IMG/VR virus record: IMGVR_UViG_3300049573_000219
Location: 123,034 to 187,033 of that record
Length of the DNA: 64,000 nt
Source: a virus
Taxonomy: Duplodnaviria > Caudoviricetes
Direction: 5' to 3' (one strand)
The translations under genes were made by a program, and so were the position numbers. Each line of letters opens with the position of its first letter. Position 1 is the first letter of the stretch. A model generated the notes under the pieces. That model did no database searches and was not told where the DNA came from. It saw only the letters and a list, made by a program, of their open reading frames with translations. Shown piece by piece: positions 27,987-56,431 of this stretch.

Positions 27987-28282
27987 TTCTTCTCCGTTTC
28001 CGTGCCGGTTTCCGCCCGGCGCGCTTCGTCTTCCTTGAAAGCCAGCTCGCACAGCGTGTAATCGCCGATCCCGAGATGACCGCCTTCGGGGCGTTCGATC
28101 TGCGCGTAAATCCGCAGCCGCTTTCCGCCCTCCTTGTATTCAGCTTCGACGACCTTCTCCAGGGCGTCTTTGAGGCTGGCCGCCTCAAGGCTGACCTCGT
28201 CGCGCTCCAGACTCTGAATTCTCGTGGGATCCCCCACGAGAGGTCGAGTCCTTCGCCATACACGAACGGTGAATTCAGCCAT
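27983..28282 (-). CDS. Hypothetical protein
   Basis: 99 aa, coupled. Confidence 0.6.
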   Translation of the reverse strand: MAEFTVRVWRRTRPLVGDPTRIQSLERDEVSLEAASLKDALEKVVEAEYKEGGKRLRIYAQIERPEGGHLGIGDYTLCELAFKEDEARRAETGTETEKK

Positions 28283-28875
28283 CAGGCAACCCTCGTCGCT
28301 CCGAAGTAGTCGGGCATGTAGTGCACCTTGTCGATCCGGATCTTCGTTCCGGTCCGAGGCGCGTGAAGCATCTCACCGTTACCGATGTAGATCCCCACGT
28401 GATGGATGGAGCGCCAGTTCCCCTTCTGGCCGAAGAACACCAGATCTCCGGGCTTCAACTCATTCCACGAGGGGTGATTGTCGGTCGTCTTGTACTGATC
28501 GTTGGCCACGCGCGGAATACTGATTCCCGCCTTCGCGTAAGCGGCCTTGGTGAGACCGGAGCAGTCGAACCGGCCACCCTGTTCAGCCGTCCCGTTGCCG
28601 CCCCAGAGGTAGGGGATTCCGATCTTCGTGCGCGCGTATGCGATGGCCGCCTTTGCGGGATCGCTGGCGCGTGAGTCCGACACGTTGCCCGCGTCGGCGT
28701 TCTGCCGCTTCGCTTCCTTCGCGCGCTCTTCCGGCGAATACCAGTTGATCTTCTCGATCGCCGGATTGGAATTCGCAGTCGAGTTCGAGATGGGCGCCGC
28801 GTGAAGGGCGCCGCACCCCGATGTGAGCAGGACGGCCGAGACGGCGGCTACCGCCGATCGCTTGATCCGGTTCAC
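28282..28875 (-). CDS. NlpC/P60 peptidoglycan endopeptidase, lipoprotein
   Basis: Lipobox LLTSGC; PYLWGG, FDCSGL, PGDLVFF, HVGIYIG, HAP. Confidence 0.92.
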   Translation of the reverse strand: MNRIKRSAVAAVSAVLLTSGCGALHAAPISNSTANSNPAIEKINWYSPEERAKEAKRQNADAGNVSDSRASDPAKAAIAYARTKIGIPYLWGGNGTAEQGGRFDCSGLTKAAYAKAGISIPRVANDQYKTTDNHPSWNELKPGDLVFFGQKGNWRSIHHVGIYIGNGEMLHAPRTGTKIRIDKVHYMPDYFGATRVA

Positions 28876-29513
28876 TGCTCGTACTTCCTCGTCTTCTGCT
28901 CGATGATCTTCACGTAGTTGTACGTCTCGCACTTGGCGAAGGAGCACGGCGGGACGCCGTTGTACTGCTGCACCCGGAAGCCACCCGCGTTGTATCCGGC
29001 GAGCATGTTCTTCCAGGTCGGGCCGGGAATGTCCTTCAGGCCCTTCGCCAGCTTGCAGTCGAACGTCGCGGCCGACGGGATCGCGTCCTCCGGGTCGAAC
29101 TGGCTCCTCTTGCCGTCGCCGTTCGCGTCCAGCCCCTCAGTCGCCCACGTGCTGTCGATGAACTGGGCTATCCCCTTGGCCATGGCCGGGGAGTGCCGCC
29201 TGCCTTCGACCACGTCACGGTTGAACCCCATGCTTTCCTGGTCGAGCTGCGCCGCCAGGAGGGCCGGGGTCAACGTCTTGCACTTGTTGCCCCACTTGTT
29301 CACCAGTTCCTCCCAGCGCTTCACGGGAAGGGATCCCGGCCGAACCGGTCCGGCGTTCCCGGTGAAGGTGTACTTCTCCTGCGGCGCCGCCTCCTGCTTC
29401 TGAGGGATCGCGGTCGCTGCTGACGGGACGGCGGGGATGAATCCGGTGACGGCCTGGATGGCGCCTACGACCAGAAAACCTCCGAAAAACACGCCACCGG
29501 CTCTGCGCATCAC
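28872..29513 (-). CDS. Lytic transglycosylase (SLT), secreted
   Basis: AAQLDQES, GIAQF, AGYNAG and ETYNYV motifs; N-terminal signal/TM. Confidence 0.88.
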   Translation of the reverse strand: MMRRAGGVFFGGFLVVGAIQAVTGFIPAVPSAATAIPQKQEAAPQEKYTFTGNAGPVRPGSLPVKRWEELVNKWGNKCKTLTPALLAAQLDQESMGFNRDVVEGRRHSPAMAKGIAQFIDSTWATEGLDANGDGKRSQFDPEDAIPSAATFDCKLAKGLKDIPGPTWKNMLAGYNAGGFRVQQYNGVPPCSFAKCETYNYVKIIEQKTRKYEQ

Positions 29514-29535
29514 GCTCCTCCTCTCTCCGGCTTTC

Positions 29536-29565
29536 AGCCTAACACTGACCTAGGCCATCCAACAA
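29536..29565 (-). promoter_or_regulatory. Putative promoter with GGCCTAGG operator in spacer
   Basis: TTGTTG-N18-TAGGCT; GACCTAGGCC at 29547-29556. Confidence 0.5.
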
Positions 29566-29636
29566 GGCTACGAAACAAGCACATTGGGGAAAGCGGAACG
29601 GCCGGACCCCGAGGAGGGCCCGGCCGTTCACACTGC

Positions 29637-30209
29637 TCACTTGCCGAGGTTCATGACCTGCGGAATCCAGTTGCCGATCTGAAGGGTGATCTCGGCGAAG
29701 ATGCCACCACCCAGCGGGAAGAAGAACCCGCAGATCGCACCGAAGACGAGGTCCGTCTTGTCGTCGTCCTTGTTCCTCATCGCGAGGAAGAAGAGCAGGA
29801 GGCAGATGCCGCCTGCCCCGATGTCCGACAGGACCGGCCAGCCGCCGAGCGTCATGACGATGCCCTGGAAGAAGTCGACCAGGTCGACCACGAAGCCGCC
29901 GGTGGAAGAGACGATCGACGTCATAGCCCACATTCCGATGAGGAATGTCATCAGGGACTTCCAGTCGAACCCCTCGGACCCACCGCCCCACTTCGAGGCC
30001 ATGCGCTTGGTCGGCTCCGTGACGGCCTTGTTCATCAGGACGCCGAACATCGGACCCCAGGGGCCCATGGGAACGCCCTTCTTGTTCCCCTTGATGCACA
30101 TGAACGCGATGACCAGCAGGATGATGCCGAATCCCGCCATGGTGGTGTGACCCACCCAGGAGTTCTCCGGAACATCGATCGTCTGCTGCTGCGTAACAGC
30201 CAGAAACAC
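29637..30209 (-). CDS. Multi-pass membrane protein (spread/transfer-like)
   Basis: About 4 hydrophobic Gly-rich helices. Confidence 0.7.
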   Translation of the reverse strand: MFLAVTQQQTIDVPENSWVGHTTMAGFGIILLVIAFMCIKGNKKGVPMGPWGPMFGVLMNKAVTEPTKRMASKWGGGSEGFDWKSLMTFLIGMWAMTSIVSSTGGFVVDLVDFFQGIVMTLGGWPVLSDIGAGGICLLLFFLAMRNKDDDKTDLVFGAICGFFFPLGGGIFAEITLQIGNWIPQVMNLGK

Positions 30210-30422
30210 CTTTCCCTCTCCTTCTCAGGGGGCCGCCGGGAGGCGGCCCCTCTGATTCACCGACCAGGGCGAGCGGGCGTCAGGATCGGAAGCCCGTTCA
30301 GGTCGTCGTCCTTACGGAACACGACACATCCCCTTTCCAAGCGGCACACTCGTCCGCTTCGCACCTCCGTCCGGAACGACCCGGAGCAAGCCCGTCTTCA
30401 TCGACGGCGGAGGCCCCTCGCA

Positions 30423-31334
30423 TCACCAGGCAGCACCCGGCGCATACAGCGCCGCCCCGGTGATGACCGATGCGAGAGGGGTCATCAACAGGACGTGGAA
30501 GTATCCGAGTCCGAGACCCTTTTCGATCCGGTCGAACACCCACATGGTGCAGTAGAACGTGGCACAGAACAGGCCAGCGACCCAGAACTGCCACCACTGG
30601 AACGTCCACGGAGATCCGAAGATCCACGTGATCTCGTCGGGGTACGAGACTCCGACGAAGAAGCCGATGGGCACCAGGTAGGCGGCCCGGGTGAGCCACC
30701 GGACGCCCGCCTCGGCGAGCCGCCCCCGGTAGGTCCCCTGGGCCAGGTACCCGGCCGTCAGGTTCCTGACGAACATGATGACCATCGGTGCGAGCCCCAG
30801 GATTGCCGCCCAGATCAGGCCGCCCATCCTTCCGGTCTCGTACGCCATGCCGACGGTGTCCCTGAACCACCTGCCAAGGCCGTTCAGAAGTCCCCACTCG
30901 GTCGTGGAGGTGCCGAAGCGAATCCGCTCATACAGAGCGATCAGGATCTGCGGACCGGCGACCCACGAAACGACGGAGGAAATCATGAACGAAGTGACGT
31001 ACGGCCGGGTCTTGCCATTCTCGGGATCGAGGTTGGTCTTCACCGTCTCGATCGCCTTGTAGACCGGCTTCATCACCTCGCCAGCGATCTTCTTCTCTTC
31101 GCTGACTTTCTCCTTGACGGGGGCCAGGATCTCCTTGGCCTCCTTGCGCACCTTCTTCTTCTTGTCCTCGGCCTTCGTCTTGTCGTCGGACCACTTGGCC
31201 CGAGCCGAGGAGAGCTTGCCCTTCAGGGCCTTGAGGTCGCCCTTCAGGGTTCGCGGCGGCTTCCGGTGCTGGCCCTTCAGGTGCACGGTCGGGGCCTTCT
31301 TCGGCTTCGGGGGAATCCCCGTCTGCGTCGCCAC
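30423..31334 (-). CDS. Multi-pass membrane protein with Lys-rich N-terminus
   Basis: Basic coiled N-terminus then about 5 TM helices; AGGAGG RBS. Confidence 0.75.
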   Translation of the reverse strand: MATQTGIPPKPKKAPTVHLKGQHRKPPRTLKGDLKALKGKLSSARAKWSDDKTKAEDKKKKVRKEAKEILAPVKEKVSEEKKIAGEVMKPVYKAIETVKTNLDPENGKTRPYVTSFMISSVVSWVAGPQILIALYERIRFGTSTTEWGLLNGLGRWFRDTVGMAYETGRMGGLIWAAILGLAPMVIMFVRNLTAGYLAQGTYRGRLAEAGVRWLTRAAYLVPIGFFVGVSYPDEITWIFGSPWTFQWWQFWVAGLFCATFYCTMWVFDRIEKGLGLGYFHVLLMTPLASVITGAALYAPGAAW

Positions 31335-31493: not shown

Positions 31494-31532
31494 GACGCCC
31501 CCTTTGATCTCTCTACTGGCGTTGTGGTGTCC

Positions 31533-31561
31533 AGCATGACACAATACGGCCTAGGCCACAA
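31533..31561 (-). promoter_or_regulatory. Divergent promoter region with perfect GGCCTAGGCC operator
   Basis: TTGTGG-N17-CATGCT; palindrome at 31548-31557, just upstream of the GntR start. Confidence 0.65.
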
Positions 31562-34385: not shown

Positions 34386-35576
34386 TCAGCGACCCATCGC
34401 CGCCTTGTACTCCTCGGTGGCCTGCTCCAGGAACTCGCTCAGGCCGTTCTGCGCGAACCACTCCAGGGTGAAGACCTTCGTCGCCTCGGTCACCCGGGGG
34501 GCACCCGTGCCGAGCGCCTTCGCGAAGGCCGCCTTGGTGATACCGCCCTCGGCGGCGTCGGCCGCGTAGTACCGGGCGGCCAGCATCGCCTTGCGCTGGT
34601 CGGCGTCGCTCAGGTTCAGCTCGGCCAGGACGCCCTCCTCGTCGGACTCGCCGCCGTCGGCCGACTTGGCGAGCTGGGGGCGGGCCGGAACCGTCTGACC
34701 CTGGATGATCTGGATCCCCAGCGGCTGCCGGAGGCGGATCTCCTGCTCGGCGTCCAGACGCTCCAGCGTGATCTCCTGCTGGGTGCGCATCGTCTCGATC
34801 TGAAGGCGGGCGCTGAGGTGCTGGCGCATCGCCTTGATCTGGTTGGCGCCCTCCAGCTCGGCCTTCTCCGCCTCGAACTTCGCCTCACGCTCCAGCTTCT
34901 CGCGCTCGATCTGCGCCTGCACCTTCTCGCGCTCGATCTCCGCCCGGCGCCGCTCCTCCGCCAGGGCCGCCTCGTGGTCCCGCTGCCGCTGGATCATCTC
35001 GGCCTCGTGCTTCTCGGCGGTCGCGGCGGTGCGGGCCCGGGTCATCCGGGACTCACGCCGCTGCTCGGCGATCTCGGCCTTCTGGTCCTCGGTCAGGTCG
35101 TTGGGGTCCTTCAGTCCGTTCAGCGCCAGCATCCACGTGAACTTCGTGAAGATCGGAAGCACCGCAGCGAAGGTGGCCGCGCCGCCGCCGACCGTCGAGC
35201 CGTGGTAGCCGAGCAGCGCCGCGACGAACAGCACCTCCACCCATCCCAGGAGCGGGAGGATGTTGAACGTCTTCGGCTCGCCCTTCTTCAGGCTCCAGGT
35301 GAACGGGAGCTTCTGTCCCCGGTACTCCGCGACCATCGTGGCGGACCAGAAGATGTCCATCGTCACGGCCGCCGAGAGGCCGATGAGGCTGATGTTGCCC
35401 ATCTTCTCGATCGTCAGGGCGTCGACCTGGAAGAGGTCGAGCATGGACCAGGTGGTCCATGCGAGGGATCCGATGGAGAGGAGACCGGCCATCGCCACCA
35501 GGAGGGAGAACCGCTTCGGCCCGTCCTCGGCGATGTCGACCTTCTCGACCTTTCCGCTGTTCTCCGTCTTGTCCAT
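34386..35576 (-). CDS. SpdB-like membrane/coiled-coil spread protein
   Basis: Four N-terminal TM helices (SLAWTTWS...D..W), long coiled coil, possible C-terminal HTH; architecture of Streptomyces Spd proteins. Confidence 0.65.
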   Translation of the reverse strand: MDKTENSGKVEKVDIAEDGPKRFSLLVAMAGLLSIGSLAWTTWSMLDLFQVDALTIEKMGNISLIGLSAAVTMDIFWSATMVAEYRGQKLPFTWSLKKGEPKTFNILPLLGWVEVLFVAALLGYHGSTVGGGAATFAAVLPIFTKFTWMLALNGLKDPNDLTEDQKAEIAEQRRESRMTRARTAATAEKHEAEMIQRQRDHEAALAEERRRAEIEREKVQAQIEREKLEREAKFEAEKAELEGANQIKAMRQHLSARLQIETMRTQQEITLERLDAEQEIRLRQPLGIQIIQGQTVPARPQLAKSADGGESDEEGVLAELNLSDADQRKAMLAARYYAADAAEGGITKAAFAKALGTGAPRVTEATKVFTLEWFAQNGLSEFLEQATEEYKAAMGR

Positions 35577-35641
35577 TTTCTCGCTTCTTCCTTTCCGGAA
35601 ACCCCCGATTCTCGGAACCTCGTGTGGGGGCGTTACGCATG

Positions 35642-35670
35642 ACTGTGCCATGTGGCCTAGGCCGTGTCAA
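35642..35670 (-). promoter_or_regulatory. Promoter with perfect GGCCTAGGCC operator in spacer
   Basis: TTGACA-N17-CACAGT; palindrome at 35654-35663. Confidence 0.7.
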
Positions 35671-35708
35671 GCAGATCGATCGCTCCAGGCTTCCAAGGTG
35701 CGGTTCGT

Positions 35709-35978
35709 CCGATTCGGGGTCATTCGCCAGGAGCCTCCGGAACTGCCGCCCCGCCGTGTGCCGATTCGTCCGATTCGAGTGGAGAAGGACCACCTCATCT
35801 TCCAGGTCTTCCAGCGGGACGGCGTGATCCGGAAGATCAGGAAGTCTGCGCCCCTCCGAAGAGCCTCTTCCAGAACCCCTTCCTCTCCCCGCGATGCCTC
35901 CCGGAAGCCGCCTGAACGTCGCCGGATTCCTTCTGACCTGCCACGTCGCGATCCTGTGCCCCGATTCGACCCGATTCG
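35709..35978 (+). repeat. Cluster of five CCGATTCG direct repeats
   Basis: Exact copies at 35709, 35761, 35770, 35961 and 35971. Confidence 0.7.
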
Positions 35979-36370: not shown

Positions 36371-37804
36371 TCAGCCCGCCCACGGGTCGTCGCTGAGCCA
36401 TCGCGTGACCGTGGATCCGTCCACGCCGAGGATGCGGGCGCCCTCGGCGCGGGTCAGGTGCCCCTGCTCCACCTCCTCGCGCAGCCAGGCGATGACAGCG
36501 GAGCGGGCCTCCGTCTTCTCCTCGGGGGTGAAGCCGGACTTCGGCGCCTGGGAGGCGTGGTACGTGAGCACGACCATCGGATGGCGGCCGACGGGGACCT
36601 GCGGGGCTTCCTGCTCCGCCTCCACGGCCTCCTGGAGGATCTGGGGCGCCTCGGGTGCGGCGTCCTCCTGAACGGGCTCAGGGACCGCCTCCTCGCCCTC
36701 CTGGACGGGCTCGATGTCGGGGGCCACCACCCACCAGTTCTCGTGCACCGGCTCGTCTCCGGCCGGGTACGGGCCGGGAGTGGCGAACTGGACCTGCAAG
36801 ACGCCCTGCAACGGTTGCTGCACGGGCTCTTTCGTGAGGCTGACCTGCGGAGATTCGATTGCATCGGGCTGCTCGTGCAAGCCGGTGCGCACTGCCGCCC
36901 GCAGGGGGGTGGTCGGCTCGTCGAGAATCGCCCCGTCGTCACCCTCGGTGACGTCCGAAACGTCCACATCCGACCAGTCCGAAGTGGCCTCCTGCAAGCC
37001 GTCGGTCAAGGGCTCGACATCGTCCTTGACCAGCGAATACGGAGGCTCGGGGGTGGCCGGTCGCAAGTCCTCGCGCCGGAACTCGTCCACGACCGAGGTG
37101 ATGGCGTCGAAGTGGTCTTCCGATTCCTCCGGCTTTGCACCCTCCGTAGTGGCCTGGTGCATCGGCTCGTGCGTCGGTCGCTCAGGCAGCTCCGGGCCAG
37201 GAATCACAACGGTTTCCGGCTCCTGGCGAATGGCCTGCTGCACCTCTTCGTGCAAATCGGCCTGTTCGATTCGAGCGGTTTCGACCGAATTCTCCGAATC
37301 GTCCTCCGAGATTTCGCCGACCTCGACAGGTCCCGACTCGCTGACCTGCACGTTCTCCAGAACCTTGGTCTCCTCCTCCGACGCGGCGACCTCCTGGGTC
37401 TCCGCTTCGGAGTCCTCACTCTCGGTGACTTCCTCGTCCTCGAAGTCGCGCCACGGCTCCTCCCTGCCCAGCCTGCGCTCTCGCGCGGAGAAGACCGCCA
37501 GGCCGACCACGCAGACCAGCACCGCGCCCATGAAGGACTGGAAGACGCTGACCGAGTGGCCGCCGCGCTCCGGTCCGCCCGTGAAGGCACTGGTGACGAT
37601 CCAGACCGGGATCGTCACGACGAACACCCGGAACGCCTTGCTCCAGACGGAGCGGTGCTCGCCGTTCTCCTCGGGCTCCAGCACCCAGTTCTTGCTGCCA
37701 TGGAGCCCCCTGCGCAGCATCTTCTTGATGCCCGTGGTGCCCTGACGGACCTCCACCGAGCGCCGCACGCCTGCCATCTGCGGAACCTTCATGCGCGTGT
37801 TCAT
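36371..37804 (-). CDS. Two-TM protein with long acidic linker and C-terminal HTH
   Basis: 2 TM helices, Glu/Pro-rich region, TRAEGARILGVDGSTVTRWL. Confidence 0.75.
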   Translation of the reverse strand: MNTRMKVPQMAGVRRSVEVRQGTTGIKKMLRRGLHGSKNWVLEPEENGEHRSVWSKAFRVFVVTIPVWIVTSAFTGGPERGGHSVSVFQSFMGAVLVCVVGLAVFSARERRLGREEPWRDFEDEEVTESEDSEAETQEVAASEEETKVLENVQVSESGPVEVGEISEDDSENSVETARIEQADLHEEVQQAIRQEPETVVIPGPELPERPTHEPMHQATTEGAKPEESEDHFDAITSVVDEFRREDLRPATPEPPYSLVKDDVEPLTDGLQEATSDWSDVDVSDVTEGDDGAILDEPTTPLRAAVRTGLHEQPDAIESPQVSLTKEPVQQPLQGVLQVQFATPGPYPAGDEPVHENWWVVAPDIEPVQEGEEAVPEPVQEDAAPEAPQILQEAVEAEQEAPQVPVGRHPMVVLTYHASQAPKSGFTPEEKTEARSAVIAWLREEVEQGHLTRAEGARILGVDGSTVTRWLSDDPWAG

Positions 37805-39000: not shown

Positions 39001-39219
39001 TCAGACGGTCTCCACCCGGGTCACGTGGGTGTAGACGGCCTGGTAGATCTCACGGACACCCTCGGCGTCCACGTCGTCGAGTTCCACCAGGACGGTGTGG
39101 TGCTCGCCCGTCACGTCGGTGCACGGCAGGCCGTTCACCGGGCACGGGCCGGTCTTCTTGTCGCGCGGGTTGTGCTCCGGGTTCTTCGGGAGCTTGACCG
39201 TGACCAGGTACTTCGCCAT
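39001..39219 (-). CDS. Hypothetical protein
   Basis: 72 aa, coupled to the NlpC gene. Confidence 0.6.
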   Translation of the reverse strand: MAKYLVTVKLPKNPEHNPRDKKTGPCPVNGLPCTDVTGEHHTVLVELDDVDAEGVREIYQAVYTHVTRVETV

Positions 39220-39701
39220 CAGCCGATCCGCCCGTAGAACGCCTTCGGGGAGCCCTTGGTGTACTCGGAGATCGGCGCCTTCACGACCTTGTACCCCCGG
39301 TACGACGCGGAGTTGGCGTTCCACATCCAGCCCTTGCCGTTCTTCCAGCCAGCGTAGATGCCGACGTGGTAGATGCCCTTCTTCGAGGTGCCGATGAAGA
39401 CCAGGTCGCCGACCTTGCGGTTGGACGCGGAGATCTTCCGGGACATGTTGTACTGCCCCTGCGCACTCAGGCGCTTCTTCCAGCGGTAACCGGCCTTCTT
39501 GTAGGCGAAGTGGACCAGCCCGGAGCAGTCGAAGCGGCTGGGCCCGGTGGCGCCGCGCTTGTAGCGGTCCCCCTTCTGCTTCGCGGCAATCTTCAGGGCT
39601 TCGCTGCGTATCGAGGTCGCGGCGCTGGAGGTGGGCGCCAGGGTCAGCACCATCCCTCCCGCGAGCGCGGTGGACAGGGCGACGGTGGTGAGCTTCCGCA
39701 T
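39219..39701 (-). CDS. Secreted NlpC/P60 peptidase
   Basis: Signal MRKLTTVALSTALAGG...SSA; FDCSGL, GDLVF, HVGIYAG. Confidence 0.9.
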   Translation of the reverse strand: MRKLTTVALSTALAGGMVLTLAPTSSAATSIRSEALKIAAKQKGDRYKRGATGPSRFDCSGLVHFAYKKAGYRWKKRLSAQGQYNMSRKISASNRKVGDLVFIGTSKKGIYHVGIYAGWKNGKGWMWNANSASYRGYKVVKAPISEYTKGSPKAFYGRIG

Positions 39702-39760: not shown

Positions 39761-40225
39761 CTACCAGCTCATTCCTTCGGGGCTGAAGTGGATGGGGATC
39801 CCCGCCGCTCGCGCCTTCTCCACGCAGTCGAATGTGCCGTGGGTGGGGTGCTCGCCGGGCGGGCACCAGGGGGCCTTCTTCTCGCACGGAAGGGCCCATG
39901 CCATCAGGGCGTCCATCCCCGCGTCGACCATCCCCTGGTTGCGCAGGAAGCCAGCCTGGTTGCCGTGGCGTCCCCAGTCGGCCGGGTGCGGGTCTTCGAG
40001 GACCAGGTGGTCTGGGAAGCGTTCCGCCCAGTCGCTGACGTGACGGTCGACGCCTCTCCTGGCCTTGCCATTGCGCACGATGAGTCGTCGGTGGTGGCGC
40101 AGCATCCGTGTCAGCGGCACCCAGACGGAAGACCGCCTGGTCCACCCCCTGGACCCGGTCACTCCCAGCACGAATGCCGGGTTGGCTTTCAACCACGCTG
40201 CCAGTTCGGCGTCTTGGGCTTTCAC
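39761..40225 (-). CDS. SLOG-family (YspA/DUF2493) protein
   Basis: VTGSRGW, GVD, ADW..HG..AGFLRNQGMV, GT..C. Confidence 0.8.
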   Translation of the reverse strand: MKAQDAELAAWLKANPAFVLGVTGSRGWTRRSSVWVPLTRMLRHHRRLIVRNGKARRGVDRHVSDWAERFPDHLVLEDPHPADWGRHGNQAGFLRNQGMVDAGMDALMAWALPCEKKAPWCPPGEHPTHGTFDCVEKARAAGIPIHFSPEGMSW

Positions 40226-40240
40226 GAGCCTCCTCTCAAC

Positions 40241-40572
40241 GGCCTAGGCCGATCCTACCCGATGGCCTACCTCCTGGGTAGGCCACTAGGTTGACCTGTT
40301 TGTCCAGATTCGCTGCGATTCGCCTACCATTCGAATCATCATGAATCGCCAAGAATCGGACACCAGATGCCAGTTTTTCATGGATCCCCGACACGCTACA
40401 GCAGGACAAAATCACCCAAACCATGCTGACCGATTCGTGCCGTACGACCGATTCGTTCCCTACCGTTCGGTAACTTCTCTTCCGAGATTCGGCCGACTTC
40501 CAAGCCGATTCTTGTTACTTACCGGTAGCTTCTCTTCGCTTCCACGAGGAAGGAAAGTTACCGAACGGTAGG
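40241..40572. promoter_or_regulatory. Lower-GC non-coding region with operator, GAWTC cluster, 11-bp direct repeats and 18-bp inverted repeat (candidate ori/clt)
   Basis: GGCCTAGGCC 40241-40250; GACCGATTCGT x2 (40428, 40446); CCTACCGTTCGGTAACTT 40459-40476 inverted at 40555-40572. Confidence 0.55.
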
Positions 40573-40960: not shown

Positions 40961-41377
40961 TCAGTTGAACTGGACGTCGGTTCCATCAGGCCAGACGAAC
41001 CGGGCATCCTCCTTGCGGACACCCTCGTCGTCGATCACGACGCGCCAGATGTCACCGGCCCACTCGGTGCTGGTGACGACCATCATGCCGCGAACACTCC
41101 GCCCGATCTCCGCCATCTCGGAGACCAGCCCCCTGGCGTCTTCCTCCAGGTTGCGACAGTCGAAGGACTCGCGCCACGGAACGGCGAACTTCGCCGTGAA
41201 GATGGTGGAGATCCCGGTGTCGGTCTCCTCTTCGGAGCGTTCCACGTCGAGGACGATTCCCGGCTCATCGCGAGCCTGCGGCTTGTTCGTCAGGTGGAAC
41301 TTACTGTCCCTGATCTCGGCCCATGTCAGCGGCGGTTCGATGGTGAAGACCCCGTTGACTGATGCGGTGTAGCTCAC
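40961..41377 (-). CDS. Hypothetical protein
   Basis: VSYTASVNG..I.PPLTWAEI; AAGGAG RBS. Confidence 0.65.
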   Translation of the reverse strand: MSYTASVNGVFTIEPPLTWAEIRDSKFHLTNKPQARDEPGIVLDVERSEEETDTGISTIFTAKFAVPWRESFDCRNLEEDARGLVSEMAEIGRSVRGMMVVTSTEWAGDIWRVVIDDEGVRKEDARFVWPDGTDVQFN

Positions 41378-41465
41378 CTTCTTCTCCTTTCGAGCAGCAG
41401 AAGGAACGCGTGGGTGGCCACCCCGGATCCTGCCAGGATGGCCACCCATTCGATCGCGTACCGCA

Positions 41466-42107
41466 TCAGCCCTTGGTGCAGAGCGGGAAGAGCTTGGCCT
41501 TCTGGCCAGCCGGGATCCCGGCACCCTCGCACTTGCGGTAGTCCGCCTCGCGGACGTCCTGCTCGTAGAGGTAGCCGTCCTTGGCCAGCACGAAGATTTC
41601 GTACTCCTCCTCGCAGCCCTTGAGGTTGGCCGGGATGAGGAGCTTCGGGATCGTCAGGCCCTTGAGCTTCTGGGGCTTCTCGGGCTTCTTCTCCAGCTTG
41701 ACGCCCTTGTTCTTGGGGGCGGCGGGCTTGCTGCTCTTCTTGCCCTGGCCGGAGTCCGAGTTCGAGGAGTCGCTGTTGTTCTTGCGGTTCGAGTCCGACT
41801 TGGCGCCGGAGTCGGAGTCCGACTTGCTGGACTTGTTGCCGTTCGAGTTCGAGTTCGAGTTCGAGTTCGAGTTCGAGTTCGAACTGCTACTGCTGGACCT
41901 CCCCCCGGATCCGCCGGAGCTTCCACCCTTGCCGGTGACGAAGGCGACGGCGTCCATGGCGACGTCCTCGCCGGGGCAGTCGTAGTCGATCTGCTGACCC
42001 TGAACGAGGCCCGAAACCTGGTACTCGTGGGTCTCCCCGGAGCACGCGGAGGCGGTCAGGATGATGCCAGCGGCACCGGAGACGATCATTGCGGTCTTCT
42101 TGTTCAC
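41466..42107 (-). CDS. Lipoprotein with Ser/Asn/Lys-rich low-complexity centre
   Basis: Lipobox LTASAC; (SN)n tract. Confidence 0.7.
   Translation of the reverse strand: MNKKTAMIVSGAAGIILTASACSGETHEYQVSGLVQGQQIDYDCPGEDVAMDAVAFVTGKGGSSGGSGGRSSSSSSNSNSNSNSNSNSNGNKSSKSDSDSGAKSDSNRKNNSDSSNSDSGQGKKSSKPAAPKNKGVKLEKKPEKPQKLKGLTIPKLLIPANLKGCEEEYEIFVLAKDGYLYEQDVREADYRKCEGAGIPAGQKAKLFPLCTKG
41841..41882 (+). repeat. Perfect hexamer microsatellite (GTTCGA)7
   Basis: Directly visible; encodes (NS)n. Confidence 0.95.
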
Positions 42108-42215: not shown

Positions 42216-43301
42216 GTGTCTGCACCGATGAGCGCAGCCAGGTTTCTGGCCGCTCTGAAGGCCGAAGGTGTCGACGTCGTCGAGGTCGGCGACTGGGAGC
42301 ACCACAACCGCAACAGCAAGGGCGCATGGGGTCCCGTGCACGGCGTGATGATCCACCACACCGTGACCAGCGGCACCCAGAACACCGTCAACATCGTCAA
42401 GAACGGGTACTCGGGACTGCCCGGCCCGCTCTGCCACGGCATGATCGCCAAGAGCGGCAGGGTCTACCTGGTTGGCTACGGCCGTGCCAACCACGCGGGC
42501 CTGGGCGACGACGACGTGCTGCGCGCCGTCATCAACGAGACCGACGCACCGGCCGACAACGAGGCCAACACCGACGGCAACAGGGCCTTCTACGGCTTCG
42601 AGTGCGAGAACAAGGGCGACGGCAAGGACCCTTGGCCCGCAGCCCAGCTCGAAGCCATCGAGCGTGTCTCCGCAGCCATCTGCCGGGCGCACGGCTGGGG
42701 CCCCCTGTCGGTCATCGGCCACCTGGAGTGGCAGCCTGGCAAGGTGGACCCGCGCGGGTTCACGATGGACTCGATGCGCAGCCGCATCAGGGCCCGCCTG
42801 GCGGTCGACCCGAGCAAGCCGACCCCGCCGCCCTCGACGGGCACCACCTACACGGTGAAGCCCGGTGACACCCTGAGCGGCATCGCGAAGGCCCTCGGCG
42901 TGACGGTCGATGCCCTCTTCCAGGCGAACCGGGACAGGATCAAGGACAAGAACGAGATCTTCCCCGGTCAGGAGCTGGTCGTCCCGAAGGGGTCCGGCCT
43001 GCCGAAGCCGGTCAAGCCGAAGGTGGACCTGTCGCAGCTCGTCGCGGCTGCCCGCTCGAACCCGAAGGCTTCCGGCCAGCCGGTCACCTACGCGGGCGTC
43101 AAGACGGTCGAGGCCGCCCTGGTGGACGAAGGGCTCCTGTCCAAGACGTACTCGGACGGGCACTACGGGACCACCACCGTGAGCGCCTACGCCGCCTGGC
43201 AGAGGCGCTGCGGGTACACCGGAAGTGATGCCGATGGCATCCCCGGAAAGTCGAGTCTCACTAGGCTCGGCGACAAGCACGGTTTCACTGTCGTCGCGTG
43301 A
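42216..43301 (+). CDS. Endolysin: amidase_2 + LysM + peptidoglycan-binding domain
   Basis: IHHT, RANHAG, GFECEN, GHLEW..GK.DP; LysM YTVKPGDTLSGIA; DGHYG/ADGIPG binding domain; AAGGAGG RBS. Confidence 0.93.
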   Translation: MSAPMSAARFLAALKAEGVDVVEVGDWEHHNRNSKGAWGPVHGVMIHHTVTSGTQNTVNIVKNGYSGLPGPLCHGMIAKSGRVYLVGYGRANHAGLGDDDVLRAVINETDAPADNEANTDGNRAFYGFECENKGDGKDPWPAAQLEAIERVSAAICRAHGWGPLSVIGHLEWQPGKVDPRGFTMDSMRSRIRARLAVDPSKPTPPPSTGTTYTVKPGDTLSGIAKALGVTVDALFQANRDRIKDKNEIFPGQELVVPKGSGLPKPVKPKVDLSQLVAAARSNPKASGQPVTYAGVKTVEAALVDEGLLSKTYSDGHYGTTTVSAYAAWQRRCGYTGSDADGIPGKSSLTRLGDKHGFTVVA

Positions 43302-43318
43302 CCACGAAAGGTGGCCAA

Positions 43319-43696
43319 ATGCGTATCTTCGGTCGTGAGCCGGTGTACATCCTGGCTTTCGTCGCCGTCGCCCTGAAGCTGGGGTCGGCATACGGGCTGG
43401 ATGTCTCCGATGAAATGCAGGGCGCCATCATGGCGTTCCTGAGCCTGGTGGTCGCGCTCGTCGAGGCGGTCGTCCTGAAGACCGGTGCCGTCGGCGCCGC
43501 CGTGATCAATCTGGCACAGGGCGCCCTGGCCCTCTTCCTCGCCTTCGGGCTGGACATGAGCGCAGAGCAGCAGGCCCTGTGGATCCTGATCGTGGAGAGC
43601 GCCGTGGCGCTGTGGCTCCGCGAGAAGGTCACCGCACCGGTCACCATCCTGCCGGTCGAGCAGAGGGCGCCCGCCGCCGTCAGCAAGGCGGCCTGA
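43319..43696 (+). CDS. Holin
   Basis: MRIFGREP start, 4 TM, R..VTAP C-terminus; follows the endolysin. Confidence 0.8.
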   Translation: MRIFGREPVYILAFVAVALKLGSAYGLDVSDEMQGAIMAFLSLVVALVEAVVLKTGAVGAAVINLAQGALALFLAFGLDMSAEQQALWILIVESAVALWLREKVTAPVTILPVEQRAPAAVSKAA

Positions 43697-44537: not shown

Positions 44538-44831
44538 TCAGCGCCGCCGCATGGCCGCACTGCGGATGACGGATCCCTGGCGGACGGCCGACTCGCCCGG
44601 TCGGCCGTCGTTCATCTGGACGTACTCGGCCACCGACGAGGTCTGCTTCGCCTCCCTGCGCTCACCCCAGGGCAGGCCGGGGAACTCCTTCTTCGCCTTC
44701 TGGAGGCGCGTGTTGATGGTCTGCGGCGAGCAGTCGTACTTCACCGACAGGCTGAGCTGCGACATGCCGTCCAGCCAGTCGAGCGCGATGGACCGGTTGC
44801 ACAGGTCGGGGCGCTTCACCCGGCCGTCCAC
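44538..44831 (-). CDS. Small HTH protein
   Basis: GMSQLSLSVKYDCSPQTINTRL. Confidence 0.55.
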   Translation of the reverse strand: MDGRVKRPDLCNRSIALDWLDGMSQLSLSVKYDCSPQTINTRLQKAKKEFPGLPWGERREAKQTSSVAEYVQMNDGRPGESAVRQGSVIRSAAMRRR

Positions 44832-45361
44832 TGCACACCTCCCGCCCACTCGGGCTTGAGTGCCTTCAGTTCGGGCAGCAGGCTCGGGTTGACGATCTCC
44901 AGGATCGCCTGGATGTCGCCCCCGTGGAGGTGCGGCCACATCATCAGCCGCGCCTCCCTGTACTTCGCCTCCAGGCGGGCCCTGGTGGGCCCGTCGAGGT
45001 GCTTGAGGCGGTCCGGCAGGGAGTTGTGGGCGTTGTCGCTGGTCTTCACCAGCATGGCCGGGTAGCCGCCCGCGATGACCCGCTCGATCTGCTCGCGCTT
45101 CGTGGAGCCGGGGACCTTCGTCACGGCGTCGATGATGCCCAGCGAGTAGCTGGACACGCCGACCGAGGCCAGGGATTCCAGGGTCTCGTCAGTGTCTTCG
45201 ACGACGTCGTGCAGGACACCGGCAACCTGGATCGGTACAGCGAACAGGGACAGGCCAGCCGCCACGGCGCGTACGTGCTCGATGTACGGCACGCCGTTCT
45301 TGTCGATCTGCCCTTCGTGGGCCTTGGCCGCGACGATGTCGGCCTCCCAGAGGTGCATCAC
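44816..45361 (-). CDS. HD-domain hydrolase (RelA/SpoT hydrolase-like)
   Basis: AHEGQ..K.GVPYIEH, LHDVVEDT, VK.SD..HN. Confidence 0.85.
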   Translation of the reverse strand: MMHLWEADIVAAKAHEGQIDKNGVPYIEHVRAVAAGLSLFAVPIQVAGVLHDVVEDTDETLESLASVGVSSYSLGIIDAVTKVPGSTKREQIERVIAGGYPAMLVKTSDNAHNSLPDRLKHLDGPTRARLEAKYREARLMMWPHLHGGDIQAILEIVNPSLLPELKALKPEWAGGVQWTAG

Positions 45362-47004
45362 TTCTTCTCCTTTTCCGCATCGTCCTGGTACAGGGAGCCC
45401 ATCCGGGCCCGCTTCTCCAGATTCTTCAGGTAGACATCATCGTCGATGCTGCCTTCCGTGATGAACCTCCACCGCTGGACCGGAGACTTCTGGCCGGGCC
45501 GGTGCAGACGCCCTTCGGCCTGCTCGTTCATCACGTTGTCCTCGGTGAAAGAGATGATCGCCTCACACCGGCAGACATCCTTCAGCCAGTCGACCCCTTC
45601 CGAGAGGGACTGGAGTTGAGCGATCAGCACCCGCCATTGAGTTCCGAATCCCTCTTCGATCTGCTTTCGCTTGGACGGCGTGGTCTTCATCGTCCAGGCA
45701 ACTGCGGAAGAGCCGATCGCTTTCTCCGCCATTCGAGCCCAGCGCGCCGAATGCGTCCACACGAGAAGCGGTTCATCCGGCGGAAGGTCGGCCAGCAGGT
45801 CGATCAGCGCGGTGAGCTTCGGCTGTGCGGCCTGCTCTTCGTAGGACACCTCCAGCTTGTCCACCGCGTAGGAGATGTGCGTCTTGAGGTGACCGGTCTC
45901 CTCGTCGACCTGATCTTCGATCACCTGGATGTCGTAGATCTTCGGGTCGCGCTTGAGGTCGAAGAGCTTCTGCTGGGTGACCCAGCTCTTCTTCCGCGTC
46001 GTCGTCTCGTCTGCACGCAGGGTGCCGAGGGCGGACTGCCTGAGACGGGTTCTCTGCTCGACCGGAAGGGGCGCGGCCACCGGCTGATCGGCGAGCCACG
46101 CGAGCGACTGCCCCTCGAAGTCCCGGTACTGCTCCTCCTGTTCCGGAGCCATCGGGACGCGCACCTCGCGCTCGATGACCGGCGGAAGCTGATCGACAAC
46201 CTCTTCGGTCCGGTAGCGGACGACGGCCGGGATGTCGCGCCAGACGCCGCCCGGGACAAGCTCGTCACCGATGACCTCGTGCTCGACCTTCTTGCCGCCC
46301 TTGTAGTACCCCTTGTCCTCGAACTGGAAATGCCTCCGGGCCCAGTCGTGGAAAGCCGGGTAGCGGTCCGGCCAGACGAGGTTGAGAGGGGTCCACAGGC
46401 CCTCCGGCTTGTTTCCGCCCGGGGTTGCGGACAACAGGAGCCAGCGGTCCGCCTTGATGCACTTCAGGACGTGACGCGGGACGCCGTGCCGGTTCACCAT
46501 GCGGTGCGACTCGTCGAGGATGACGAGATCCCAGGTGCCGGTCCTGGTCCACGGTGGGACGGTGCCCTCCTTCATCGCCTTCAGGGCCGCAGCCTTGGTG
46601 GCCTTGGGTTCCTTCGCCAGCGCGTTGCGGCCGGACGACGCCCGGCGCCGGATGTCCTCCGGGATGCCGCCGTGCATGGCGTTCCAGCCGATGATGAAGA
46701 CGCCTGGCGGCTTCTTCCTGGAGGTGAGGGCCGACCAGTTCTCGGTGTCCTTGCGGTGCGTACCCAGAATCCTGGTCAGCCCTTTCTCGGCGAGCGAGGG
46801 GTACTGCTCCTCGAAGGTGCGCTGCCACTGGCCGAGCGTGTTGATCGGGGCCACCACGAGGACGCGAGGAATGCGGCCAAGGTCCAGCAGACGCACGGCC
46901 TCGACGCTGGTCACGGTCTTACCGGCACCGAGGCCGGAGGCGTTGATGCCGCCTCCGGCCAGGATGCGCCGCGTCTCCTCCTGGTAGGGACGCAGGGTCT
47001 TCAT
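45358..47004 (-). CDS. SNF2-like SF2 helicase
   Basis: LRPYQ, GLGAGKT, DESH, SATP, QAEGRLHRPGQ. Confidence 0.9.
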   Translation of the reverse strand: MKTLRPYQEETRRILAGGGINASGLGAGKTVTSVEAVRLLDLGRIPRVLVVAPINTLGQWQRTFEEQYPSLAEKGLTRILGTHRKDTENWSALTSRKKPPGVFIIGWNAMHGGIPEDIRRRASSGRNALAKEPKATKAAALKAMKEGTVPPWTRTGTWDLVILDESHRMVNRHGVPRHVLKCIKADRWLLLSATPGGNKPEGLWTPLNLVWPDRYPAFHDWARRHFQFEDKGYYKGGKKVEHEVIGDELVPGGVWRDIPAVVRYRTEEVVDQLPPVIEREVRVPMAPEQEEQYRDFEGQSLAWLADQPVAAPLPVEQRTRLRQSALGTLRADETTTRKKSWVTQQKLFDLKRDPKIYDIQVIEDQVDEETGHLKTHISYAVDKLEVSYEEQAAQPKLTALIDLLADLPPDEPLLVWTHSARWARMAEKAIGSSAVAWTMKTTPSKRKQIEEGFGTQWRVLIAQLQSLSEGVDWLKDVCRCEAIISFTEDNVMNEQAEGRLHRPGQKSPVQRWRFITEGSIDDDVYLKNLEKRARMGSLYQDDAEKEKK

Positions 47005-49833: not shown

Positions 49834-49883
49834 GTGCTTCTCCTTTCGGCCTAGGCCAGCTTACCACGAAGCTGGCCCCAACT

Positions 49884-54446: not shown

Positions 54447-54564
54447 TATGCACAGCGGGATTCGAACCCGCGAGCCGCCTGGATTCTCCAGATCCAGTCG
54501 GCCGCCTGCCTCCTCCGCTGGGACGGATTCAGCAGGCCCCCTTTGACCACTCGGGCATGTGCAC
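54447..54564 (-). ncRNA. Class-II tRNA-like RNA with 24-nt structured anticodon region and long variable arm
   Basis: Acceptor GUGCACA/UGUGCAU+A, D arm CCCGAGUGGUCAAAGGG, T arm GCGGG-UUCGAAU-CCCGC; no 7-nt anticodon loop. Confidence 0.75.
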
Positions 54565-54666
54565 CGCCGGGCTGATCGACCCGGCCCAGGTTCCGCTTGC
54601 AGAGGTCATGCGCCCATACGGGTCGTCTACACGGAACCAGAGGCTCTTCTTCCTCCTCTGCCTCAG

Positions 54667-54751
54667 AGTCCACGACGGGATTCGAACCCGCGTCTCCCCT
54701 CGCTGGCTTGACCCAGTAGAGGGGTGTGCTCGGCCGCTGCACTACGTGGAC
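54667..54751 (-). ncRNA. Class-I tRNA-like RNA with extended anticodon hairpin
   Basis: Acceptor GUCCACG/CGUGGAC, D arm GUGC/GCAC, T arm GCGGG-UUCGAAU-CCCGU; 19 nt between the anticodon-stem strands. Confidence 0.75.
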
Positions 54752-54905
54752 AGCCCGGCTTCCTCAAGGCCGGGCGGGCGGACTTCCGTCGCCGGGTAGC
54801 CAGCCCGGCTGTGCCTGTGACGGAAGCCCTCAGTGGCACGTCACCCCGTCACCGGCTTTCCCAGCAGGGGACGGGGGGATTGCGGTCACCATTTTGGTGA
54901 CCTTG

Positions 54906-54980
54906 TTGGCGGAGAGGGACTTGAACCCCCGGCCTCTTCCTTATCAGGGAAGCGCTCTGACCGAACTGAGCTACCCGCCA
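54906..54980 (-). tRNA. tRNA-Ile(GAU), CCA not encoded
   Basis: Full cloverleaf; anticodon arm CUUCC-CUGAUAA-GGAAG; U1-A72, A73. Confidence 0.9.
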
Positions 54981-55092
54981 GCGATCCAGCCGGAGGCAGG
55001 TCGGATCTACCTCCGGAGGATCGGTACATCGAGCCGGGCCGTAACCGGCTCGATGTGTTTCGTTCGGGCGTCGGATTCCCGAACTAAGTGAA

Positions 55093-55122
55093 ACTCTACC
55101 GGACGTTGCTGGCCTAGGTCAA
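55093..55122 (-). promoter_or_regulatory. Promoter of the tRNA/ncRNA cluster with overlapping operator
   Basis: TTGACC-N18-TAGAGT; GGCCTAGGTC at 55111-55120 overlaps the -35. Confidence 0.75.
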
Positions 55123-55132
55123 GACTCGCACG

Positions 55133-56431
55133 TCAGGCCACGAGACGGAAGGCGCCACCCTCCGCAACCACCAGCCCCTCGTGCGAGAAGGACCGCAGAA
55201 AGCGGCTCGCCTGACGCGCCCCGCACCCCGTGTGGGAGGCCAGGAGCTGCGGCGTCCAGACGGCCTCCGGCTGGGTGTTCAGGGCCCGCAGGGCGACATC
55301 CCTGGGGTACTGACCACGGCCGTGGTCCGGGTGCGCGAGAAGGCCGATCATCTCGTCCGTGACCGTCCAGGTCTGGATGAGCGAAGGTCCGTAACCACCC
55401 AGGTAGCCGAAACCACGGTTCCTCGGGTCAGCCGTGAGCAGGTGCGGGCCGTAGTCCGCGTCGTCGCCGAGCGCCACCGTGGCGTGGCCGGGCTTGCTCA
55501 CGCGCAGGGAGAAACGCCAGTCGGCGTTGGCGTCGATGTTCGTGTCGATGCCGGGCGCCTTGCCGGAGACGATCGGGTACTGGGTGGCCCACCACAGGAA
55601 GACGCCCCAGGCGCGGCCCATGCTGGAGATCTTGATGACCTTGTCCAGGCACTCACCCTCGTCGGGCGACATCTCGGCCTCGGCGTCCTCTTCGCTGCGC
55701 CTCTTCAGCCGGGCCATCTTCTGGTTGACCTGGTCGATCCGGCGCAGGTTGCCCAGGAACTCGCGCCCCTCGTCCACGATGTAGACCTTGTAGGGGCCGA
55801 ACTCCGGCCGCCACACCGTGGAGCGCTCGCGGCGCATCAGGTCGGCCCGGCTGTTCATGTCGTCGACCGCGCGGTCCAGCATCTCGTCGAACTGGCCCGG
55901 ATAGAAGACCGGCATCAGCCCTTCCCAGAAGGTGCCTTCGACAATCTTCGGGTCGGCGAAGACCGGGCTGATCTCCGGCATCAGGACGGCACGGGCCATC
56001 AGCGGTCGCATCGCCCAGGACTTGCCCGACCCCTTGGCGCCGGAGACCTGGAGCTGGGACGTGAACGGGATGTCCACGGTCTCGCCGGTCACGCTGTCTG
56101 CACCGAGTCCCCTGCGGCCCGGGTGCCAGAGCATGTCCATCTCCTCGGTCACGCGCCGGGTGCGCACGGCGAGCTTCGCCCGTCGCGCCCTGCCGCCCGG
56201 GAGGATGACCAGCGGGTGGTCGTCCTCGACGTCGAGGATCAGGCGCAGCCGGTCGCGCTTGTCCTCCAGCTTCTCGCGCGTCATCTCGCCGGAGAGTTCG
56301 ACGTCTGCCAGCACCCCGGCACGCGTCATCTCGGACCGGGTGATCAGGACGTCCTTCATCCCGTTCGCGGTCCACCACTCGGGCGTGAGCTGTTCCAGCA
56401 GGCGCTCTTCCTCATCCGTCGGAGTCAGCAC
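55133..56431 (-). CDS. FtsK/SpoIIIE-family ATPase, Streptomyces TraB-like
   Basis: Walker A GAKGSGKS, DPK, Walker B IVDE, GRAWG...ATQYP, C-terminal winged helix ending GAFRL; GGAGG RBS. Confidence 0.82.
   Translation of the reverse strand: MLTPTDEEERLLEQLTPEWWTANGMKDVLITRSEMTRAGVLADVELSGEMTREKLEDKRDRLRLILDVEDDHPLVILPGGRARRAKLAVRTRRVTEEMDMLWHPGRRGLGADSVTGETVDIPFTSQLQVSGAKGSGKSWAMRPLMARAVLMPEISPVFADPKIVEGTFWEGLMPVFYPGQFDEMLDRAVDDMNSRADLMRRERSTVWRPEFGPYKVYIVDEGREFLGNLRRIDQVNQKMARLKRRSEEDAEAEMSPDEGECLDKVIKISSMGRAWGVFLWWATQYPIVSGKAPGIDTNIDANADWRFSLRVSKPGHATVALGDDADYGPHLLTADPRNRGFGYLGGYGPSLIQTWTVTDEMIGLLAHPDHGRGQYPRDVALRALNTQPEAVWTPQLLASHTGCGARQASRFLRSFSHEGLVVAEGGAFRLVA

Follow-up and report, generated by a model that had tools for sequence, protein, structure and literature searches.

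The window analysed here, a 64,000-nucleotide stretch of DNA (positions 123,034 to 187,033 of IMG/VR record IMGVR_UViG_3300049573_000219), belongs to a Streptomyces phage which, judged by sequence, keeps among its conserved core genes diverged counterparts of three functions that serve transfer and spread in Streptomyces plasmids, together with three exported hydrolases. The three functions are represented by a predicted Tra-type FtsK-like ATPase, a putative SpdB-family membrane protein and a GntR regulator of the TraR/KorA kind. All components are syntenic in the isolated phage Frankenweenie and in a distant relative at 44-74% identity, and the genes for the ATPase and the SpdB-like protein occur together on at least 8 viral contigs of 46-260 kb. 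A preliminary description of the window, made from its letters, had listed the ATPase, the GntR regulator, a transmembrane/coiled-coil protein, several other membrane proteins, an SLT protein, two NlpC/P60 proteins, short repeats and a shared operator, and each of these was found where it had been placed. The window has a G+C content of 66%, and genes were called via third-position G+C. The three plasmid-like genes are:

55133-56431, minus strand: predicted Tra/TraB-family FtsK-like double-stranded DNA translocase, 432 amino acids; alpha-beta motor and C-terminal winged helix, without N-terminal membrane domain
34386-35576, minus strand: SpdB-family membrane protein (P0001), 396 amino acids; four transmembrane helices, about 120 residues in one long helix, and at the C-terminus a helical domain resembling a helix-turn-helix
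31581-32315, plus strand: GntR/HutC-type regulator of the TraR/KorA kind (winged helix-turn-helix and UTRA); Pfam GntR 28 bits, UTRA 52 bits

A Tra-type motor and an SpdB-like membrane protein

Against Pfam FtsK_SpoIIIE the ATPase scores 22 bits, under the cut-off of 24, and a sequence search of solved structures (PDB) matched nothing; against PHROG 17958 (FtsK/SpoIIIE-like phage proteins) it reaches E 1.9e-36 over profile positions 204-517 of 682, and PHROGs files this family under morons and host takeover. When 72,556 plasmids were searched by tblastn, 14 of the 15 matching records were small plasmids of 5-16 kb (13 from Streptomyces and one filed under Pseudomonas), and in all three plasmids inspected, pIJ101 included, the match falls in the tra gene. 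The best match was an 8.7-kb S. californicus plasmid (33%, E 1e-47), while identity to pIJ101 Tra was 30% over Tra residues about 189-499. Altogether, the plasmid matches are pIJ101-type Tra proteins, at E 1e-47 to 1e-15, whereas canonical FtsK reaches merely 2e-4. Among phages, a Tra-type match was obtained in 18 records, all 18 of them Streptomyces phages. In a maximum-likelihood tree with two FtsK proteins as outgroups (E. coli and Tsukamurella) and with pSVH1-type TraB left out, the phage and plasmid Tra proteins form one clade, split from the FtsK motors with a support of 100/100 by a branch of about 4 changes per site. By these sequence comparisons the ATPase belongs with the conjugative Tra proteins and is remote from the FtsK of cell division. 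The TraB-like nature claimed for it in the preliminary description is thereby borne out, and grouping with non-conjugative FtsK does not occur, because the tree puts the ATPase in the Tra clade.

The motor appears intact. Walker A (GAKGSGKS) lies at residues 131-138, and D220 and E221 are invariant across 18 relatives, as are other motor residues. The AlphaFold2 model (pLDDT, the predicted local distance difference test, 87.5) has the alpha and beta domains of FtsK and, behind them at 376-430, a winged helix modelled as three helices and a two-strand wing with pLDDT about 88; in full-length relatives the winged-helix region gives MarR_2 or IclR helix-turn-helix matches. Foldseek returned the FtsK motor on DNA (6T8O) as the best match of the model, and the conjugation coupling protein TcpA as the next. 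The start of the ATPase coincides with the end of the N-terminal 185-330 residues of its full-length relatives, which hold their transmembrane helices, and the protein is equivalent to that region of the plasmid proteins which is soluble and binds clt (PMC3583192, PMC4447253). TraA of pWTY27 without its transmembrane domain is soluble and retains clt binding (PMC3583192).

Between the ATPase and its positional orthologs in Frankenweenie and Satis, identity is only 45-46%, against 70-98% for the adjoining genes; a far more distant relative has a copy with 62-63% identity to the ATPase. The gap between the ATPase and its neighbours suggests that its allele was exchanged at a fixed genome position. 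The winged helix is well conserved between the diverged alleles, and therefore a conserved DNA target is possible. The genes next to the ATPase encode DNA-binding proteins, one of them HU-like (57420-57779).

The SpdB-like protein was the more difficult to place. Pfam (in a library without PF27080) and PHROGs gave no match, nor did BLAST against pIJ101 SpdB, and the DUF2637 profile has no match anywhere on the genome. Its neighbours in a protein language model included SpdB_N, HTH_SpdB_C or DUF2637 clusters with scores of 0.83-0.88, which is a lead only, and a precomputed Pfam SpdB_N (PF27080) match exists for 14 of its 57 close orthologs. Direct comparison of the phage family with SpdB is weak (P 1e-3). 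A full hidden Markov model search, however, yielded 51 distant relatives where a word-indexed profile search had returned the phage family only, and the profile of these relatives aligned by hhalign with pIJ101 SpdB over the entire transmembrane domain (probability 98%, E 2e-13), as well as with an SpdB of S. cellulosae and a DUF2637 protein of S. californicus. The motif LPL(G/A)AKxxW...ALT is common to the relatives and to plasmid SpdB. On these profile alignments we accept SpdB family membership for the N-terminal domain, in agreement with the first assignment of this transmembrane/coiled-coil protein. The helix of about 120 residues is rich in Glu, Arg and Lys, and the AlphaFold2 model has a confident helical domain at 313-393; HTH_23 and HTH_24 match the C-terminus of the distant relatives, and neither matches the phage protein directly.

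Perhaps the motor handles phage DNA inside a single compartment, either clearing or positioning concatemers at closing septa or filling prespores so that the phage is carried in spores, while the SpdB-like protein and the hydrolases have unrelated envelope roles. The architecture of the ATPase is indeed that of a soluble FtsK alpha-beta-gamma unit, its DNA-binding neighbours, the HU-like one included, would suit such a task, and a whole relative genome found in an isolate culture (described below) would fit spore carriage. FtsK-like genes have also been annotated in Streptomyces phages, where the notes suggest a replication or developmental role (PMC11536984, PMC13587820). Yet the nearest relatives of the ATPase are conjugative Tra proteins and not septal FtsK/SffA, and the co-conservation of the SpdB family on every large relative contig is hard to account for in this way. 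We consider intracellular handling possible, though on the unlikely side.

A TraR/KorA-type regulator and a CTAG-centred operator

Regulators encoded by Streptomyces plasmids of 22-100 kb align with the GntR protein along its full length at 38-42% identity (E about 1e-35, about 140 bits), and in all three plasmid contexts inspected the homolog is divergent from an operon with an FtsK/SpoIIIE and/or a DUF2637 protein. The phage protein is also 31% identical to pIJ101 KorA, and its best solved-structure match is DasR with merely 43 bits. On these three values, in a comparison that took in plasmid regulators and, of the chromosomal GntR proteins, DasR alone, we regard the phage protein as one of the TraR/KorA type, and the KorSA/TraR-like label of the preliminary description holds. 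On the phage the gene is divergent from that of a membrane protein, P0002, and not from that of the ATPase.

If up to 2 mismatches are allowed, the window contains 12 copies of a 12-mer, TGGCCTAGGCCA, against 2.3 expected, and none of 100 shuffles reached 12. As the palindrome GGCCTAGGCC, relaxed to G[GA][CT]CTAG[GA][CT]C, it is present 15 times genome-wide; CTAG itself has 43 copies in 187 kb, about a third of which lie inside these 15 promoter palindromes. The six window sites (29547, 31548, 35654, 40241, 49848 and 55111) are all intergenic, and all six are kept at orthologous places in Frankenweenie. Each coincides in part with a promoter-like element, being placed immediately behind a TAnnnT hexamer or between the -35 and -10 boxes:

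29546-29557, minus strand: operator TGACCTAGGCCA, inside the promoter of the SLT-NlpC/P60 operon; conserved at Frankenweenie 69643
31547-31558, no strand assigned: operator palindrome in the divergent promoter region of GntR and P0002, 23 bp before the GntR start
35653-35664, minus strand: operator palindrome adjoining the -35 box (TTGACA) of the SpdB-like promoter on its downstream side
40240-40251, minus strand: operator palindrome before the YAcAr/SLOG - NlpC/P60 - P0003 gene string
49847-49858, minus strand: operator palindrome before a string ending in an SNF2 helicase and an HD-domain protein (Pfam: 45358-47004 and 44816-45361)
55110-55121, minus strand: operator overlapping the -35 box (TTGACC) of a promoter-like site directed at the tRNA cluster, immediately 3' of the ATPase gene

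Nine further operator-bearing operons lie outside the window. Relatives with proteins of only 43-70% identity show almost no variation in the promoter of the SpdB-like gene, including its operator. Plasmid homologs of the GntR protein have a CTAG-centred palindrome, GCTACTAGTAGC, in their divergent regions. In the korA-tra intergenic region of pIJ101 no GGCCTAGGCC-like site was found, and the KorA operator region has different repeats. The presence of GCTACTAGTAGC beside the plasmid homologs supports, short of proof, a binding of the phage palindrome by the phage GntR protein.

Two other observations concern these promoters. Those of P0002 and of the SpdB-like gene (31520-31560 and 35620-35670) are alike, with TTG..., the operator, about 10 nucleotides and GTCATGC, and may share an alternative -10 box or sigma factor. 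Upstream of the SpdB-like promoter, at 35600-35800, two copies of GAA(T)TCGGAC(A)GAA are found in all relatives, and are presumably the site of an unknown conserved factor.

The retention of a Kor-type repressor recalls plasmid biology, where tra and spd are Kil functions that retard growth and need repression by a GntR protein of the Kor/TraR kind (PMC4447253). The phage genes could likewise serve host takeover or competition, with kil-type tra, spd and the hydrolases arresting or remodelling hyphae, or hindering plasmids, actinomycete integrative and conjugative elements (AICEs) or superinfecting phages, and with the GntR protein restraining them. The operators on the promoters of the SpdB-like gene and of the hydrolases, the PHROGs category of the ATPase family, and the ATPase allele swap (46% identity beside neighbours at 70-98%), which fits genes in conflict, would all agree with this. 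Nonetheless, the intact motor residues and the conserved, predicted DNA-reading winged helix point to real DNA translocation, and no defence or anti-defence family turned up, although none was specifically tested. We hold such a role to be rather unlikely.

The candidate clt-like 8-bp repeats deserve a separate comment. CGAATCGG occurs 16 times in the 187-kb genome, 5 of them within 270 bp upstream of the SpdB-like gene:

35709-35978, minus strand: tandem direct-repeat array of CGAATCGG, candidate protein-binding site; three pairs with a spacing of 9-10 bp

In one of the pairs the second copy is imperfect, the other two pairs being perfect; two further copies lie at 40430 and 40448. The clustering is real, but relatives do not share it, even beside an ATPase of 94% identity. 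The idea that the cluster covaries with the ATPase allele was rejected, the contig with this 94%-identical ATPase having a single copy. All relatives keep a shorter element, GAATCGGACGAA. Skewed 8-mers of the genome were complements of the ribosome-binding site only. Two perfect hexamer arrays were also considered as clt and rejected: 7.5 copies of GTCCGA at 56904-56948, in the gene of an acidic protein, and 7 copies of GTTCGA at 41841-41882, in a lipoprotein gene, encode (Ser-Asp)n and (Ser-Asn)n, respectively, and are absent from relatives.

The phage genome, its wall hydrolases and a possible spread through the mycelium

The window is the final 64 kb of a 187,033-bp record that is rated 100% complete with overlapping ends; the record is a rotated phage map, and the assembly overlap between its ends measures 127 bp. 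By Megablast the window is collinear, at 80-83% identity, with the Streptomyces phages Frankenweenie (200 kb) and Satis, Kradal, Quantum and EhyElimayoE (186 kb), the queried stretches being covered to 88-98%. As 86% of the whole record aligns collinearly with Frankenweenie, the assembly is not chimeric, a point that the preliminary description had wished to see checked. By nucleotide similarity and gene order the genome is that of a cluster BM Streptomyces siphophage, together with Satis, JustBecause and Frankenweenie. Synteny with Frankenweenie and other annotated relatives, along with Pfam, identified terminase, portal, capsid, tail, tape measure, endolysin, holin, lysis and DNA polymerase genes. 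Phages of cluster BM are siphoviruses with long prolate heads and defined ends carrying direct terminal repeats of about 1 kb (PMC6687918, PMC10652959), and the isolated relatives are plaque-formers judged unlikely to be temperate (PMC10652959).

The preliminary description had proposed a phage-plasmid, an episome that would move between mycelia by hypha-to-hypha conjugation via a TraB-like ATPase and clt besides travelling in virions. In its favour are the position of the ATPase in the conjugative Tra clade, the existence of 8-bp direct repeats, and the published case of the plasmid-phage pZL12, the conjugal transfer of which requires its tra gene (PMC3583192). A further point comes from Scaffold14 of S. 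cucumeris NEAU-Y11 (NZ_JANCLX010000014.1), the distant relative mentioned above. It is a whole BM-like phage genome of 185,382 bp with 62% G+C and a 127-bp end overlap, that is, a separate, circularly assembling scaffold in an isolate assembly, syntenic with our genome. It carries a tyrosine integrase (11703-12833), a second GntR gene (13923-14612) and an M4 metallopeptidase, for which no counterparts were found in the window genome. The wider lineage may include host-persisting members, since this genome was present in an isolate culture and bears an integrase.

Inspection of the full replicon, which confirmed capsid and terminase, revealed neither par nor integrase genes. No tyrosine integrase, serine recombinase/resolvase, ParB or ParA-type ATPase was found in the complete genome, in a search in which control genomes gave matches, and integrase, resolvase, ParA and ParB are all absent from the 366 annotated features of Frankenweenie. 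As regards plasmid partition, the complete genome has no ParB_N or ParA-type (AAA_31) match, plasmid Rep families not having been searched. The defined ends and non-temperate behaviour of BM phages, the lack of a membrane domain in the ATPase, which makes the conjugation by "TraB alone" of the preliminary description doubtful, and the loss of the repeat cluster in close relatives all argue in the same direction. The phage is of the virulent, non-temperate type and is probably not a plasmid; we consider a phage-plasmid decidedly unlikely.

Besides the plasmid-like genes, the window encodes three exported hydrolases and several membrane proteins:

28282-28947, minus strand: NlpC/P60 peptidoglycan endopeptidase (RipA/RipB/RipC-like); Pfam NLPC_P60 95 bits
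28872-29513, minus strand: SLT-type lytic transglycosylase; Pfam SLT 37.8 bits, NCBIfam MltB-type matches, N-terminal Sec signal or anchor
39219-39701, minus strand: second NlpC/P60 endopeptidase; Pfam NLPC_P60 65 bits, Sec signal peptide, 98% identical in Frankenweenie
29637-30209, minus strand: membrane protein with three transmembrane helices; no Pfam or PHROG match, 74-76% identical even in the distant S. cucumeris element
30423-31334, minus strand: membrane protein P0002; Lys-rich N-terminus, C-terminal transmembrane bundle, divergent from GntR, conserved at 62-69%
36371-37804, minus strand: P0003, two transmembrane helices, long acidic linker and an end resembling a helix-turn-helix at the C-terminus; conserved
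26070-26783, minus strand: YdjM-family inner-membrane protein; Pfam YdjM 70 bits, at the far end of the SLT-NlpC/P60 leftward string

The SLT gene is translationally coupled to the first NlpC/P60 gene, whose likely start at 28875 gives a lipoprotein signal (LLTSGC) and whose product is 82% identical in Frankenweenie and 52% identical in the S. cucumeris element. Both NlpC/P60 peptidases have their top scores against actinobacterial NCBIfam models of the RipA/RipB/RipC type, and the hydrolases are separate from the endolysin-holin cassette (42228-43696). RipA acts with an Rpf transglycosylase on the mycobacterial septal wall. By analogy, the pairing of SLT and RipA-like enzymes would suit a local opening of cross-walls. 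No family match was obtained for P0002 or P0003 in Pfam, PHROGs and NCBIfam, and P0002 had none in the Protein Atlas either. The YdjM-family protein is possibly part of the transfer and spread set. The Frankenweenie ortholog of the SLT protein, gp104 (29972-30607 of the compared stretch), is annotated as "glycosyltransferase", probably by an annotation slip.

The reading that we prefer, although tentatively, is that phage DNA would pass the cross-walls of the hyphae without particles, driven by a soluble motor which attaches to the SpdB-like protein. The hexameric motor would dock on this membrane protein at the cross-walls, the exported hydrolases would locally open the septal wall, and phage DNA would be pumped into the neighbouring compartments, so that the infection could spread within the mycelium without virions. 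The GntR protein would repress by way of the CTAG palindrome overlapping the 15 promoters, and its UTRA domain would time these and many other early or middle genes.

Several results weigh against this reading. Hydropathy revealed no hydrophobic or transmembrane segment in the ATPase; the missing N-terminal membrane-association domain is the one by which TraB forms pores. The transfer-like genes are dispersed over 28 kb and are not co-transcribed: the SpdB-like gene is served by a separate promoter, stands 20 kb away from the ATPase gene and forms no tra/spd operon. When all 90 window proteins were compared by BLAST with six plasmid regions, the ATPase and the GntR protein were the sole matches, and no homolog of SpdA, KilB or other Spd proteins was found; moreover, the nearest plasmid relatives of the two belong to different plasmid types. 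The pairing of the regulator with the palindrome is inferred only, and no operator is present upstream of the ATPase gene. The preliminary description was right that several operons share an operator, but the integrated transfer regulon it saw there did not hold up: as the operator stands at 15 promoters genome-wide and at none for the ATPase, it looks like general phage promoter control. In addition, no conserved clt was identified. The CGAATCGG cluster lies 20 kb from the ATPase gene and is specific to the window genome, relatives retaining one or two copies, and no genome-wide guide motif for the winged helix resembling KOPS (FtsK orienting polar sequences) nor any notable 8-mer excess (maximum z 3.4) was detected.

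An ATPase shortened at its N-terminus, a scattered gene set and different plasmid donors might even suggest decaying relics of past plasmid recombination with no present role. However, the reading frames are intact, the catalytic residues invariant, the synteny is held across relatives at merely 44-74% identity, and homologs exist on many large viral contigs, which renders decay very unlikely.

In its fullest form, the preferred reading of particle-free spread would describe a virulent 187-kb, prolate-headed phage with a split conjugation machine made of a Tra motor, an SpdB-type pore and RipA/Rpf-like hydrolases, by which one adsorption would take many compartments before lysis. A TraR-type repressor with a sugar-binding-type UTRA domain would act as timer, and integrase-bearing relatives may persist in this way in cultures. 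As a whole this picture is doubtful. Propagation of phages through septated mycelium is poorly understood, and particle-free DNA spread has so far only been suggested, from single SpdB2 homologs. The cultured, plaque-forming group of Satis, Frankenweenie and relatives conserves the predicted motor, channel protein, repressor and wall hydrolases together, which makes the idea directly testable. Moreover, a plasmid Tra motor can apparently function, or at the least be kept by selection, when its membrane domain is absent.

Other genes of the region are mentioned for completeness. A YAcAr/SLOG-domain protein (39761-40225, DprA-like in the annotation of relatives) and a DUF6205 protein (40961-41524) are encoded around the 40-kb position, and the leftward segment 49884-54980 contains Phage_ProQ_C-like, TROVE/Ro60-like and RNA ligase genes and four tRNA-like genes, one being tRNA-Pyl(cta) according to ARAGORN. 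The RNA ligase is absent from Frankenweenie and from the S. cucumeris element.

Comparison with known systems

The closest plasmid parallel is pIJ101 (korA - tra - spdA - spdB - kilB; NC_001387), with Tra at 30% identity, KorA at 31% and SpdB at profile level. In the plasmid, however, the genes are packed into a single divergent kil-kor unit, whereas distances of up to 24 kb separate those of the phage; pIJ101 Tra has N-terminal 185 residues with a transmembrane helix which the phage ATPase lacks, and for SpdA and KilB no phage homolog was found.

In pSVH1, TraB is an FtsK-like hexamer whose C-terminal winged helix reads 8-bp repeats, TraR is of the GntR type (Thoma et al. 2015, PMC4447253), and SpdB2 has four transmembrane helices, forms pores, binds DNA and co-purifies with TraB (PMC4447253); for this system, Vogelmann et al. 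(2011) is cited in PMC4447253 and PMC3583192. Crossing of the septal cross-wall is the role shown for the plasmid proteins and proposed here for the phage. Unlike pSVH1 TraB, the phage ATPase is without a membrane domain, and it gave no match to a TraB of this larger-plasmid type at E<0.05; clt is only a candidate on the phage. Conversely, the pSVH1 set as described in PMC4447253 is without the exported SLT and NlpC/P60 proteins that the phage has.

The motor also resembles that of FtsK (PDB 6T8O, 2IUS), with a template modelling score of 0.58-0.65 over about 410 columns and a gamma-like winged helix after the motor; it differs by the lack of a PDB sequence match, a Pfam score under the cut-off and a very long branch. 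DasR is likewise a HutC-type GntR protein, and its operator dre is TGGTCTAGACCA. The phage palindrome TGGCCTAGGCCA has the same CTAG-centred layout, but two positions per half-site pair are unlike dre, and the DasR score of 43 bits compares with about 140 for the plasmid TraR-type regulators.

Among phages, pZL12/phiZL12 is a tailed-phage genome of a mycelial actinomycete with plasmid-type double-stranded DNA transfer genes, as is ours. ZL12 gave no match to the phage ATPase, and here the genome is 187 kb and of non-temperate type, the motor is truncated and the genes are dispersed. Woodruffvirus phages TP1604, Xkcd426 and Mischief19 encode a member of the same Tra family ("FtsK-like DNA translocase"), although theirs is full length (631-682 amino acids) and about 40% identical to pIJ101 Tra from end to end, and no SpdB-like gene was seen in the flanks examined. 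Woodruffvirus tra is the last gene at the right genome end, and Tra of Mischief19 is 62% identical over 280 residues to an S. californicus plasmid Tra, an identity that suggests a recent plasmid-phage exchange. Plasmid transfer genes seem to have flowed repeatedly into Streptomyces phages of very different lifestyles.

Finally, homologs of SpdB2 in phages phiC31 and VWB were noted in 2015 with the suggestion that they might aid the spread of phage DNA (PMC4447253). What phiC31 and VWB have in common with our phage is a membrane protein of the Spd family; according to the same paper both are temperate, and only an SpdB2 homolog is noted in them, whereas here a Tra-type motor and a TraR-type repressor are predicted as well. 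Since the plasmid-phage pZL12 has already been published, what is new is the combination, in a 187-kb phage of non-temperate type, with a motor devoid of its membrane domain and with the genes dispersed.

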